A stretch of DNA of 64,000 bases from the NCBI GenBank assembly GCA_951406725.2, contig OX597820.1:117924001-117988000 (forward strand). The letters run 5' to 3'. Shown here in pieces: positions 20,150-55,812 of this stretch. Both the position numbers and the translations under genes were made by a program. Origin of the DNA: Octopus vulgaris (taxonomy: Eukaryota). Under the pieces are notes generated by a model. It saw only the letters and a list, made by a program, of their open reading frames with translations. It searched no databases and had not been told where the DNA came from. Positions within the stretch are counted from its first letter, which is position 1, and the number at the start of each line of letters is the position of its first letter.

Positions 20150-20517
20150 TATAATAAATATCTGAGCATGTTATAAACAATAGCTGCACGACTTCGTGAA
20201 GTATATTTGCCACCTAAATATGGCTAACTCTTAAGAGTCGATGCTACTGTAGCTTGTAGCCCCAGGAAGACATTTCCAGCTGGCTATTGACACACTATAT
20301 GTGCTCTATCAGTATTTGCAAAACGAAGTAATCGTTCTCATCTCCAGCCTGACATGATACACTTGGACCCGAGTTTCTGGGTATTTACCCGTCATCAGCA
20401 TGTGACACCCACCGGTTGGCGATGGGGAATGGTTCTCAATGCAAATATAGATATTCTTTTTCCATTGACAAAAAGACACTGATCTCGAAAAAGTAGAAAC
20501 AGGCAATAATATATCTA
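20150..20517 (-). mobile_element. Hammerhead-bearing non-coding element family D (copy 1)
   Basis: Collinear with 41541-41918 (aatatggcta..., tagccccagga..., tccagctggct..., tgcaaata, ctgat.tcgaaaaa). Confidence 0.7.
20360..20404 (-). ncRNA. Minimal hammerhead ribozyme-like motif, GUC site
   Basis: Minus strand: CACAUG-CUGAUGA-C-GGGU(AAAU)ACCC-A-GAA-ACUCGGGU-C-CAAGUG. Confidence 0.75.
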
Positions 20518-30960: not shown

Positions 30961-32029
30961 GCTAATACGACAACACTTGTTAATTGACACCGAAAACAAA
31001 GATTGGTTTTGTTTGGGGACATCATCCCTCATTGAAATTATTAACAATCGATCAGTTTTACTCAAACCCTCATCCTTATTTCACCCTAACCCTCACATAA
31101 ATGATCGATTTTTCATTTGAAATAACTTGAAATCAAAATTCGATTATTTTTTTCCTCTAACTTCTCACTTTCTTTCACCTCCACTTAAAGAAGCAGTCAC
31201 GCATATATTCCACACCATTCCACTATTCCAATCATCTAACCACACATACATACAAGTAAAGTCGCCCTCTCAAAAGCCAGACAATATCTACCTACTTTGA
31301 TCTATTCCTTGATTTTTGCACATGGCAGATATGTTGTCCAACTTCCATCTCCACTCATCAGTCTCACCTACGAGAAACCACAATCTCACTACTCATGTTT
31401 AACATCCGTTGCAATCACTAGAATCAACATGATTAGTTGACGCTGGTTTAAACATTAATTTAGAGAAATGTTTTTACTGATGTGTCTGTAGAAAGTAATG
31501 TTATAAATGTCTGGGTAACCATTATTTTTCCAGACTTATTAAAGGAAGCGTTAAAAAACATGTTAGATAACAATATCACAGTCAATTAAAATTAAATTTT
31601 CTGTTTAAATTGTGTAGTTGAAATTTTCAATAATAAAAAGATCCGGAAAACATTTTCATCAGAAAAATATATTAAAATTGGAATTTTCACGAATTTTCTA
31701 AACATTGTACACTTTAATGATTGTTTTTCCTTAGTAAAAGTTACGTGCTCACTACTAATTAACAAGCAACTTGCTTCATCATAGCATATCTGGAATTAAC
31801 AATATATCTCTTTTTACCTTTTTTTTAAAAAAAAAATCTTTCTTTCCTATCTTGATAAAACATTGATAACTTTCTCTCGTCCATATGGTTTAATATCCTG
31901 GCTGTCATATTGCTCTATTATGTAGAATAACTGTGATATACGAAATTTTAGATAGTTAATGTATGGAGTTTTTCTGGCCTTTACTATGCATGATAAGAGC
32001 TGACCTAAAATTAAACATGATCAACAACG

Positions 32030-32100
<71 letters not shown>

Positions 32101-32135
32101 TAATAATAATAATGATAATAATAATAATAATAAGG

Positions 32136-32167
<32 letters not shown>

Positions 32168-32318
32168 AATAATTGTTTGTGAAAGCATAAGCTCAGTTTT
32201 TCGTGGGAGAAAATATGCAACTGACTGAATCAAGATGAAGTAACGTAACTTGCACTGATTCGAGACAACGAGGTAAACTAAATGACCATTCAGACTGTCA
32301 GGAATCAGATTATCCTCA

Positions 32319-33473
32319 AATCGCTTAATGCAGTTGTGAAGACTTCGTCTGTAGAAGTCGGTAGGTTGCGTTTGGAGCCAAGACTTCATCTCTGAAATAA
32401 GTCCATCATCATCTGAAAAGTGCTTCCCTTTCAAAAAATACCTCATGGTTTGAAAGAGGTGAAAGTCAGATGATGCGAGGTCAGGAGAGTAAGGAAGATG
32501 AGGAAGGCTTTCATAGCCACAGGAGTGTGCTTTCATCTGAACAACATGCACATTATGAACTGGGATATTGTCTCCTTTGGTCAGCATGCTACAACTCTCT
32601 GCTTTGATGGTGGTGTCCCGCAATTTCTGCATCAGAGAAGCTTAATATTCCCCGTTAATTGAGGAGTCCTTTGCCAGAAAATCCATCCTCACTATTCTGT
32701 GCTGGCCGCAAAAGACTGTGAGCATCATCTTGCTTGCTGAGGGTTGGACAGAAGCCTTCTTTGGAGGTGGCAAGTTATCATGCTTCCATTGCTTCTACAG
32801 GACTTTGGTCTCAGGATCATAGTGATGGACCCATGTTTCATCCTGTGTAATAAGTCTACCTAAAAAGTCCTCCTCGTTTTCTTGGCACATTGTCAAAAGA
32901 GCCTGGGAGCAATTGACTCATTCCTGCTTCTGTGAGCATCCGTGGAATCCATCGGGAAGACAACATCCACATATGCAAATGGTCGTGAATGATTTTTTTC
33001 AACGGATCCTACACTTATCTTACTCTTTGGGCTAGTTGCCGAATAGTTATGTGGCAATCCTCCAAAATAGTGGCTTCCACTTTATGGATGGTGCCATCAT
33101 CAACGGTGGAATGTGGTTGTCCAGGAATAGGAGCAGTTTCAACCAATGTCCGACCACATTTGAACTGGCGATGTCAGTGCTTGACTACGTCTTATGATGG
33201 TGCATCGTTACCATAAACTTCTTTCATCTCATTGAAAGTCTCTTATGGTGCACAACCTTTCAAGTATAAGAACCTGATCACTGATCTGCATACAACTGCC
33301 TCAATTATAACACTTTAGTCCACTTCAACAGCCATGACATACAAGCGAATACTAGTGGGAAGCTGCAATTTATAATGTGACATGTAGAGACATTAATGTT
33401 TAAACCTGTGCAAGTTCCATTTCCTGCAATCACTGGAAGTGGGTGAGGGGAAATCTTTAATGAACACCCCTTG
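32319..33473 (-). mobile_element. Degenerate mariner (DD34D) transposon with 5' TIR; 3' end lost
   Basis: N-terminus CRSVIRFLYLKG...EMKEVYG..AP, then ITQDETWVHHYDPETK (first catalytic D) and HLPYSPDLASSDFHLF. TIR caaggggtgttcattaaaga lies next to TA at 33474-33475. Multiple stops. Confidence 0.9.
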
Positions 33474-40848: not shown

Positions 40849-41540
40849 GTGAAAATAAACGTCAAGGGGGTGGGACTACGAACTGTCAACCGCGAGGATA
40901 GAATTCGGTTTTTAATTGAAGACTAAGTATTTCTATTCTAAAGATGTCGTCAAACTTCGCCACCTTGCTCATAAAGGCGGGTACTGGCAAAACACAATTC
41001 TGTACCAGAAGATAGCAGGTGCCAAGCATGACATTTGAACTACCAAAATATATTTAAAGACAAATGCCAACATTGTACTAAAAATCCATTTACCGTTTTA
41101 TATTTAGTTCTTGAAGGAGTGACAAGCTAAATAAATTTTAGCATTATTTATTCAATTACTTAATTCATCTTGATTAAAGTGCTCCGATTAATTATTGCAG
41201 AACTAATTGAGTTGTTGCTTTAATTATGGGTGATCCAGTAAATTATAATTCTTTCCTATCCTCTTCTTCTTCTTTCCTCCCTTCCGTCTCCTCTGAAATT
41301 TTGCCGCGACCTTTGCTATTCTCTGCGTTTTCCCGTATATTATTTTTCACTGAACTCTTTATTGAGTAACAAGTTTTTTCTGCTTCAATAAGCAAGAGGA
41401 CCTTGAGGAAAAAAATGCAGCGGAAGACATACTGAAACAACATTTATGATAAAAACACATGCACACAAAACCCTCCATCGTAAAAATCGCATCCAGGAGG
41501 TGCAAAACGGTTTTGATTTACACAGAAACAAAATAAAAGT

Positions 41541-41918
41541 AATAATAAATCTCTGAATGAGATGTAAACAGTAACTGCTCGACAACGTAAAGTATACTAG
41601 CCATCTCAATATGGCTAGCCACTGGGGTGGGTATTACTGAAGCTTTTAGCCCCAGGAGATCATCGTCTCCAGCTGGCTTTAGGCACACTTTCTGTGCCCT
41701 TATGGTATTTGCAAAGGGAGGTCATCCCTCTCTCGTAAACCTAAGTGATACGCACGGACTGCAGTTTCTAGGTATTTGCCTGTCTTCGGCGTACGGCAAT
41801 CACCGGTTTTCGATGAAGGGAGACCTGTTTGCAAATATTTAATTATTGTTTTTCCAGTAACTTCCGTCACTGATTTCGAAAAACTGTCTGCAAGCAATAA
41901 TAAATCTCTGAATGAGAT
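41541..41918 (-). mobile_element. Hammerhead-bearing non-coding element family D (copy 2) with 23-bp terminal redundancy
   Basis: aataataaatctctgaatgagat at 41541-41563 and 41896-41918; homologous to 20150-20517. Confidence 0.75.
41751..41795 (-). ncRNA. Minimal hammerhead-like motif (CCGAAGA core variant), GUC site
   Basis: Minus strand: CGUACG-CCGAAGA-C-AGGC(AAAU)ACCU-A-GAA-ACUGCAGU-C-CGUGCG. Confidence 0.65.
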
Positions 41919-42325
41919 ATAGTAAAAAAATATAAAATACTTGTAAGAAAAATTAAAATATATTAAATGAAATGATTAGCAAGGTCGTGGTTTCGATTCC
42001 CGGACCGAGCGCTGCATTGTGTTCTTGAGAGCAAAACACTTAATTTTACGTTGCCCCAGTCCACTCGGCTGTAAAGGAATCACCCTGTGACAGACCAGTG
42101 TCTTGTTCAGAGAGAAAGTTTTGATCTCGGTAGCCATGGAAATCGGGTAACCGGCCAAATGAGTCTTAGAACTCTGCATTACTCAGGTGTCACTCAGTCA
42201 GCATTAAAATACCATTATGTAATTTTAAAGCGGACAGTCAAGTCACACACACACGCACACACACACACACACGCACGCACACACATACACACACTCACAC
42301 ACACGTATATACCCGTCGTATATAA

Positions 42326-46889: not shown

Positions 46890-47790
46890 TGAGAATGAAT
46901 GAAACTGAAAATAGGTGAGAAAAGAAAAGAACGCATGGACAATTTCATAGGGATGTTGAAGATAAGACAGACAGAGAAAAAAGATGGCTATGGATGACTA
47001 GAAGTGATTTAAAACCGGAAGCGGAGGCTCTAATCTGCGCTGCCCAAGAGCAATCATTAAGAACCAATTACATGAAATACAGAACAGATAACACATCAGA
47101 AAGTGATAAGTGCAGAATTTGTGGACAAAACAGTGAAGCCGTATGGAATACCACCAGTCAATGTACGCCACTAGACCAGAAAGAATATAAGAGACACCAT
47201 GACAATATAGCCAGGCTTATCCATTGGACACTTTGCAACAAGTATGGACTTGACAGAGCAAAAAATTGGTACGACCACAAACCTGAAGGCATCGTCGAAA
47301 AGAGAAATGTAAAGATTCGACAGGATTTTATGATTCAGTGCGACCGTGAGATTGAGAATAGGGAGCCAGACATAGTCTTAATTGAGAAAGAAAACAAACT
47401 ATGCTGGATCATAGACATAGCATACCCAGCTGACAACAAGGTATGTGATAAGGAAGAAAGAAAAGTTGTGAGATATGACAGGTTAGCTTGGGAAGTTAAG
47501 CAGTTGTGGTCGATGCAAAAGGTAGCAGTAGTACCAATAATTGTTGGAACCCTGAGAACAGTGAGTAAAAATCTGAAGAAGTATGTGGAACAAATAAGGG
47601 CTGCAATACGGGTGGAGCACTTGCAGAAAACAGCACTGCTTGGAACCGCTCGAATACTCTGGAAGGTGCTCGAAAAATAAGAGGTGTTACCTTAGTTCAC
47701 TGGTAGTGAACAGCTGACGCTGTAGTACATCTCCAGCGTTAGAGGCAACAACAACAACAACAACAATAATAATAATAATAATAATAATGG
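46890..47790 (+). mobile_element. 5'-truncated R4/Dong-like non-LTR retrotransposon (restriction-like endonuclease end) with (CAA)n(TAA)n tail
   Basis: ORF 46994-47680: HGQF..W upstream, then AAQEQSLRTN, degenerate CCHC CRICGQ...SQC, KRHHD, REPDIVL, IIDIA, K..RY, PIIVG, LQKTALLGTARIL. Confidence 0.9.
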
Positions 47791-54819: not shown

Positions 54820-55362
54820 GTCTTGGCTTTTGATCGTAACTGATTGGAAGTGTTATCATGTACATTGTTTTGTCTTGGTATAAAAGATGGGCTACAGCAA
54901 ATATTCTGCTCAATACCACAGATTTGTTTGTCAGTTGTTTGACCATAACCAGTTGAGCTTGTCCCTTAGTGGCTGGCGATATATGCATCTCTGATCACCA
55001 GCAGAAGTACTGGGGGAGCATCATAGCCGTGTGTTGAAAGGAATTCTTTGGGGTTTGGATAATTCACCTCTCGAAACATTCACCTCTCGAATATTTCGTT
55101 CAACATCCTTAAAGATACTGTATTCAGGGACCTTTTGATCGCGCTGGGCCACTCAAGCTGAAGAAAATTCTAACTGGGCCCCGCCTGCAAGGTAATACGC
55201 TGTTTATCTTGATATGAGATCACCATGACGCGCATATATGGTTGTGATGCATGTGCCTGGTGTACCCTTATCAGACAGGTAGTAATGGTAAGTATACTGG
55301 GCTTCGTATATTTATTTGTACCCCAGTGTCACTTTGATGGCATACACTGCTCTCTCTCACTC
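54820..55362 (+). mobile_element. Second copy of the 28150-28710 repeat, ending in (AAT)n
   Basis: ctgattggaagtgttatcatgtacattgttttgtc...gtacccttatcagac...cactcaataataat. Confidence 0.8.
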
Positions 55363-55427
<65 letters not shown>

Positions 55428-55433
<6 letters not shown>

Positions 55434-55812
55434 GGAATTCGACAAACTTAGTAAATATAAGGACCTGGAAATCGAAATACAAAAGATGTGGAATCTTAAA
55501 ACAAAAACTGTTCCTGTTATTGTAGGTGCCCTAGGTATGATAAAAAAAGGATGTCAAAAACACCTAGACAATATCCCTGGAGAACCATGTCTCAAGGAAA
55601 TCCAAAAGATTGTGCTAACAAGTACTGCCCACATCCTTAGAAAAACCCTATCAATGTAAATGCTTGTGTTGTATTACATGGAGATATTTCTCTACTTCTC
55701 CTCCCCAAGCTTTCAGCTATATTTCAACAACTCTTAACCTTCACTTGCCCTAGGGTGCTGGGTGTGCTCCGGCAAGTGATTACATCAAACTTGCCGATTA
55801 AAAGTAAATGGC
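55428..55812 (+). mobile_element. Extreme 3' end of an R4/Dong-like RLE retrotransposon inserted in a (TAA)n array
   Basis: KLSKYKDLEIEIQKMWNLKTKTVPVIVGALG...IQKIVLTSTAHILRKTLSM*; (TAA)n on both sides. Confidence 0.85.

Follow-up and report, generated by a model that had tools for sequence, protein, structure and literature searches.

A family of non-coding repeats in the microsatellite-rich genome of Octopus vulgaris (2.8 Gb, 227 contigs), with units of 353 to 358 bp, is most probably a non-LTR retrozyme moved by the enzyme of a Penelope-like element (PLE), as judged from its sequence and genomic arrangement. The shape of the insertions suggests that a PLE-type enzyme likely copies the element from a small RNA ring. 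Two copies were found in the stretch of DNA analyzed here (the window; 64,000 nucleotides of contig OX597820.1, assembly GCA_951406725.2).

The first copy, a member of subfamily A1, spans positions 41541-41918 on the minus strand and comprises a 355-bp unit (41541-41895) plus an exact 23-bp repeat of the unit start (41896-41918). An earlier sequence-only reading had proposed identical 23-bp termini and a period of ~355 bp, and both were recovered: 41541-41563 and 41896-41918 were the same over exactly 23 bp, 355 bp apart (26 to 27 bp with one mismatch). The unit lacked a long reading frame, the longest stop-free stretch being 83 amino acids in subfamily A and 66 in subfamily C, and was strongly self-paired as RNA. 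Its minus-strand fold reached -120.7 kcal/mol (z of -6.2; 0 of 100 shuffles were as good), and circular folds of 24 copies ranged from -85 to -122 kcal/mol, energies stated without a shuffle baseline. The second copy (20151-20517, minus strand), whose homology to the first had also been claimed, aligned with it end to end at 70% identity (blastn E value of 3.5e-37), with a local alignment score of 387 versus 121 ± 9 (maximum 154) in 200 shuffles. It is an older, decayed subfamily B copy that adjoins (TA)n, shows a run-on of ~12 bp, and is 82 to 88% identical to the best relatives among the scored genomic matches. Comparison of the flanks revealed no target-site duplication at either copy.

An abundant SINE-like repeat was observed at 41977-42090, 60 bp to the right of the first copy. 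By eye, reading-frame remnants were recognized at 1451-2441, 32021-32641, 46919-47680, and 55213-55659, which we take to be a zinc-knuckle LINE ORF1, a mariner-type transposase, and two non-LTR endonuclease ends, respectively. No tRNA was found within the 64-kb window, and tblastn with the PLE reverse transcriptase (RT) plus GIY-YIG frame gave no match anywhere in it.

Scanning the window on both strands with relaxed hammerhead criteria yielded two type I matches, both on the minus strand, at 41795-41751 and 20404-20360. The sequence-only reading had named hammerheads in both copies without giving a strand; the motifs and the named stems were present, but the stems were less complete than described and one core was non-standard. 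In the 41541 copy, stem I is formed by 41795-41790 with 41756-41751 and is extended distally, past an internal loop, by pairing of 41803-41799 with 41749-41745 (41745-41803 in total). The palindromic stem III lies at 41765-41758 and is followed by GUC, with the predicted cut between 41757 and 41756. Its core reads CCGAAGA (41789-41783) rather than CUGANGA, so that C4 breaks the type I consensus (C3 U4 G5 A6 N7 G8 A9, G12 A13 A14, A15.1-U16.1, H17); the consensus is satisfied in the 20150 copy, with its CUGAUGA core, and in subfamily C. Only three of the four positions of stem II (AGGC/ACCU) pair in the 41541 copy, the C-A mismatch leaving a 3-bp stem, and stem I of the 20150 copy (CACAUG/CAAGUG) pairs at five of six positions, with an A-A mismatch. 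The C10.1-A11.1 mismatch is common to both window copies. Among the 24 copies, this position at the base of stem II is G-C in 8 (all of A2 and C) and unpaired in 16, including the two in the window.

Rfam matched no family in the 64-kb window at the gathering threshold, and hammerhead models run against 41400-42200 gave no match up to an E value of 10. Subfamily C scored 32.2 bits (E value of 5e-6) against Hammerhead_1 (RF00163), just missing the gathering score of 34. Folded in isolation, neither hammerhead was better than shuffles (z of -1.2 for the 41541 copy and +1.3 for the 20150 copy). In all four variants examined, stem III was a self-complementary 8-mer (-8.9 to -11.1 kcal/mol), which fits cleavage as a dimer as described in PMC4209133. 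The hammerhead of the 41541 copy, with its non-standard core and lack of an Rfam match, may cut weakly or not at all. Since this copy bears a single, variant hammerhead, it is probably an inert dead-end copy.

Covariation was assessed in 24 chosen copies (5 A1, 4 A3, 4 A2, 7 B, and 4 C) on a structure that consisted of the fold of the 41541 copy with the hammerhead set in. Across these copies, 85.8% of cells were paired, compared to 31 to 45% when the structure was slid along the alignment. The covariation score was 0.171 versus 0.129 and was reached by 0 of 500 shuffles, in line with the covariation that the sequence-only reading had expected. Twenty pairs had changed on both sides (a number matched by 10 of 500 shuffles), and additional pair types were fewer than in the shuffles. 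Because the shuffle control takes no account of relatedness, individual pairs weigh more than the score; each of them represents roughly one change between subfamilies. The core pair C3-G8 was present in 20 of the 24 copies, replaced by U3-A8 in 4, and broken in none, and subfamily A2 joins U3-A8 with G10.1-C11.1. One stem I pair was G-C in 12 copies and A-U in 10, and one stem II pair was A-U in 17 and G-C in 6. In distal stem I, one pair was U-A in 18 copies and C-G in 4, and another was G-C or A-U; a pair of the 5' hairpin was U-A in 20 and C-G in 4. Covariation between family variants is thus real and includes the core swap from C3-G8 to U3-A8. The compensatory changes initially claimed from the two window copies make a weaker case, marred by the mismatches: the stem I U-A pair of the 20150 copy stands where C-G is the majority of subfamily B, two CpG deaminations suffice for this without selection, and the pair is better read as CpG decay.

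The family is large. A conserved 23-nt motif, chosen outside the piece of the unit that is borne by a Helitron-like element, had 4,375 genome matches at one mismatch or fewer (control, 0); this figure counts motif matches including those in arrays and sets an approximate minimum for the number of units. One search by hammerhead pattern found 206 matches genome-wide (control, 0) and another found 1,020 (control, 3), among which are unrelated hammerhead families. Genome searches with each window copy returned at least 98 and at least 70 matches, with 40 candidates scored for each; the ~3,300 search candidates do not equal a copy number, and their total may be raised by the Helitron-like element, which carries a 64-bp piece of the unit. 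Two side observations concern relatives of the motif. A distant relative of the unit with a UUGAUAA core was found at L140:17-181 (E value of 2e-9), and loci L092, L095, and L113 (about 1500-1535) contain hammerhead-like repeat families without relation to this unit.

We sorted 120 near-full units into A1 (39, the group of the 41541 copy), A3 (8), A2 (19), B (34, the group of the 20150 copy), and C (20). The majority sequences of A, B, and C were 72 to 81% identical to one another, and the median identity of units to their own majority was 95 to 97% in A, 93% in B, and 99% in C. As predicted from the single window copy, tandem arrays exist, with a period of 353 to 355 bp: ten units in locus L061, five in L157, and many others (e.g., L158). 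Their units run head to tail, with no LTR arrangement, and at the family level each tandem unit bears one type I hammerhead. Subfamily C, with 353-bp units, 99% identity, and a standard core, is young and occurs as multi-unit, two-armed insertions in (TA)n (L157, L158, and L197-L221).

Insertion ends were mapped in 60 loci from the genome searches, which were picked as full-length or hammerhead-bearing matches, so that end counts are biased accordingly. Left ends fell at unit positions 1 to 5 in 46 loci, at 41 to 48 in 8, and elsewhere in 6. Half of the loci (30/60) carried an inverted arm, which ended at 41 to 48 in 21 and at position 1 in 2. In the 41541 copy, the 43 nt between the fixed ends at unit positions 1 and 44 correspond to a "tail" at 41541-41583, and these ends are the predicted RT start sites. 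The other end, toward the RNA 5' side (41896-41918 in this copy), is variable: in 36 of the 60 loci, the sequence reads through the end of the unit and begins another one. Terminal redundancy of dispersed copies had been foreseen, as had the element-internal origin of the 23-bp repeat, and these loci bear out both. Target-site duplication as the source of the repeat was ruled out, the repeat being the unit's own start, and so was circular permutation at random points, one insertion end being fixed. Outside (TA)n, 12 loci had true target duplications, 7 to 16 bp in length, and 11 of these loci were inverted; duplications of at least 7 bp thus occurred in 12/60, versus a mean of 0.25 and a maximum of 3 in 200 re-pairings. 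In subfamily C, 21 of 24 loci inspected by eye were flanked by (TA)n left and right, ends lay at unit positions 1 and 42, and arms were often multimeric on both strands.

Partial tandems, an inverted truncated arm, and a 30- to 40-bp tail are described as PLE hallmarks (PMC8557442), the tail corresponding to the interval that separates two internal RT starts (PMC11167929). Given this footprint with its fixed start, the 23-bp repeat is best explained as a second round that was cut short soon after it began. The retrozyme reading originally offered is supported by the terminal redundancy, the arrays, and the covariation; the PLE footprint had been overlooked.

In the preferred reading, tandem copies would be transcribed on the minus strand, pairing via the palindromic stem III would let two hammerheads excise a monomer, and the released monomer would circularize. 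The RT-GIY-YIG protein of a PLE would nick AT-rich DNA and prime copying at unit position 1 or 44. Copying would run round the ring for a variable length, often from both nicked strands, which would yield inverted two-armed insertions. The copy at 41541-41918 would represent one arm, begun at position 1 and ended after 1.07 rounds.

The same footprint could be left by a non-autonomous PLE passenger copied from long, uncleaved linear array transcripts, with a weak or dispensable hammerhead and no need for a circle. Arrays of up to ten units are possible donors, and A1 and B were amplified despite C-A at the base of stem II, A1 also with U4C. In PMC11167929, the main PLE template in vitro is unprocessed RNA, and hammerhead mutants are reported to have left PLE insertion in vitro unaffected. 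Against a linear template, the core covariation (U3-A8 with restored G10.1-C11.1 in A2) points to selection on an active fold. The internal makeup of insertions bears on it as well. The predicted cut site was crossed at least 2 and up to ten times by 21 of 154 arms, and arm ends did not pile up at the cut site (2/154) or at the predicted transcription start (5/154) in this sample, which is biased to full-length or intact-hammerhead loci. A private variant was common to every unit in 5 of 13 multi-unit C loci (one of the five being a homopolymer deletion), and in 3 it extended across both arms; such uniformity counts against a linear template, but a homogeneous donor array would produce it likewise. 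Mean distances gave a less clear picture: they were 4.8 within loci, only slightly below the 6.4 between loci, and 9.6 between opposite arms, a value inflated by junction artifacts. Overall, we regard copying from linear transcripts as unlikely, though a serious competitor for the circle step.

Candidate PLE sources for the enzyme are at hand in this genome. A GIY-YIG search, in which 150 of 6,136 candidates were scored, revealed many PLE copies with 781-codon open frames containing RT and GIY-YIG domains. Intact frames were present at L152:1745-4087, in L153 and L154, and in many near-identical copies, and a hammerhead-like motif of the U3-A8 type was seen close to the 3' end of several relatives. 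The intact PLEs terminate in (TA)n and show their own pair of ends, and their linker contains cysteines of the kind described for Neptune, a resemblance at the level of this linker. A second young PLE family (L155:1321-4483 and L065:1-1245) has a perfect inverted arm of 766 bp, and the core of its hammerhead-like motif, CCGAAGA, is identical to that of the 41541 copy. Three short motifs whose order is shared by the unit and the L155 PLE were discarded, since on the sense strand they reached a z of 1.0 or less versus shuffles.

If the unit were the pseudo-LTR of an autonomous PLE, its copies would be 5'-truncated remains of that element. The tail, inversion, and target-duplication geometry are those of PLEs (PMC8557442), and vertebrate retrozymes are reported to be homologous to pseudo-LTRs (bioRxiv 2026.07.22.740005). 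In the octopus, however, the 5' neighbor of a unit is another unit, and no more than 5 of 148 family loci contained PLE coding sequence; at L065, the locus inspected among these, the PLE was a separate neighbor with its own end. Searches by nhmmer and pairwise alignment found no convincing homology to the unit in PLE 3' regions of 35 PLE loci, a small part of the 6,136 candidates, and the unit profile over these loci matched one separate insertion and one distant relative only, with no pseudo-LTR match. A pseudo-LTR origin therefore appears quite improbable.

It is extremely improbable that the family is a DNA-level repeat, be it a satellite, MITE, or Helitron piece, whose likeness to a hammerhead is due to chance: although a 64-bp piece of the unit is carried by a Helitron-like element and the 41541 copy has no Rfam match, one end of the insertions varies, the internal starts are fixed, terminal inverted repeats of a fixed kind are absent, the C3-G8 pair covaries, and subfamily C approaches the RF00163 threshold. 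The Helitron-like element was observed at L169:2400-2830 (minus strand) and in L161, and its 64-bp piece, which ends exactly at the position-44 end, is probably a captured truncated insertion. We presume that this element belongs to the Helitron-like non-autonomous class from its 3' hairpin followed by CTAG.

Transcription may start within the unit. ATCAGT(G/C), or a one-base variant, lies 57 to 61 nt upstream in 37 of 38 U1, U2, and U5 genes (L159-L196) and is a candidate core of the proximal sequence element (PSE). On the ribozyme strand of the 41541 copy, ATCAGTG is present at 41874-41868, from which transcription would begin at about 41815 and reach the cut 59 nt later. The same bases sit in the 5' arm of a conserved, covarying hairpin (41848-41884); subfamily C has ATCAGCG. 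A short PSE matrix peaked at this site in five of five units, with shuffle fractions of 0.003 (41541 copy), 0.023, 0.03, 0.057, and 0.17 (C), which are not independent since the five units are homologous; a longer matrix supported the site weakly, and the motif had been noticed before it was tested. No PSE motif was found upstream of the unrelated hammerhead loci L092, L095, and L113. That ATCAGTG acts as an snRNA-type promoter element is conceivable, but we lean slightly against it. Four runs from four studies, whose RNA origin was guessed, no listed run being recorded as RNA, covered the unit and the neighboring SINE-like repeat, and none covered 41200-41532; such coverage, which gives no strand, ends, level, or circle, is compatible with transcription of the family. 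The Helitron-like element is the likely source of part of this coverage, around 41585-41650, where the loose ends agree with its sequence.

More speculatively, the 355-nt module might combine promoter, ribozyme, and RT origin. An internal snRNA-type start ~60 nt ahead of the cut would provide the transcript, tolerant dimer hammerheads (C-A, U4C, or U3-A8) would release the ring, and a PLE protein dimer would copy it from two starts into both (TA)n strands. We consider this combination doubtful. If it were true, the family would be a natural mutagenesis series of hammerhead cores and a direct test of retrozyme mobilization.

In the literature on the class, mobilization of animal retrozymes by PLE enzymes, and from circles, is proposed, not demonstrated. 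The fixed predicted starts, the 99%-identical subfamily C, and intact candidate PLEs in one genome make this proposal testable in the published in vitro PLE assay, and subfamily C (L157, L158, and L197-L221) is the best material for bench work. Since the core variants have each been amplified, they also offer a way to gauge the level of ribozyme activity that such elements require. In the literature searched, we found no published description of this family under cephalopod or octopus hammerheads or retrozymes, although supplements may list cephalopod hammerheads, and none of this insertion footprint for such a family in the literature since 2021.

The core variants have partial precedents. 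Covariation to U3-A8 is known from Schistosoma PLE hammerheads (Cervera and de la Peña 2014, PMC4209133), a U4C hammerhead is described as weak in vitro and sufficient in a viroid (Perreault et al. 2011, PMC3088659), and a U-U mismatch at 10.1-11.1 is tolerated (PMC4209133, PMC3088659). In contrast, C-A at 10.1-11.1 was not found among the PLE hammerhead variants in the accessible parts of these two papers, and it marks two amplified octopus subfamilies ~25% apart. Newt satellite 2, as cited in PMC2220036, likewise has a hammerhead-bearing unit of similar size with an snRNA-type promoter, to which the upstream PSE-like motif of the octopus unit may correspond; in the octopus unit, this motif is also part of a covarying hairpin, and its promoter role is putative.

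EN+ PLEs (Poseidon of Anolis, PMC11167929; Neptune/Naiad and the non-autonomous MRC1, PMC8557442) share with the octopus family the partial tandems, the inverted truncated arm, the tail between two start sites, and AT-rich or (TA)n targets. The octopus unit differs from them in having no reading frame and a tail of 41 to 43 nt (up to 46) instead of the 30 to 40 nt given in these sources. The metazoan non-LTR retrozymes of Cervera and de la Peña 2020 (PMC7229834) also resemble it: they are described as non-coding tandem units of 150 to 450 bp (350 to 390 in mussel) with one type I hammerhead per unit, a weak palindromic stem III, a GC content below 50%, strong self-pairing, target-site duplications of >4 bp, and PLEs in the genome. 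Unlike these, the octopus family, known from sequence alone, has variant cores (U4C, U3-A8, and C-A at 10.1-11.1) and a clear two-start, two-armed geometry. Vertebrate non-LTR retrozymes (Li, Clavereau and Pollet, bioRxiv 10.64898/2026.07.22.740005) also occur as monomers, dimers, and multimers together with PLEs, and only 1 of 9 of their dimers is reported to have cleaved. Their link to PLEs consists of co-occurrence and pseudo-LTR homology, whereas in the octopus it is the insertion footprint, with no pseudo-LTR homology found. Non-LTR retrozymes are already known as a class from these two accounts, and the octopus family probably joins it.
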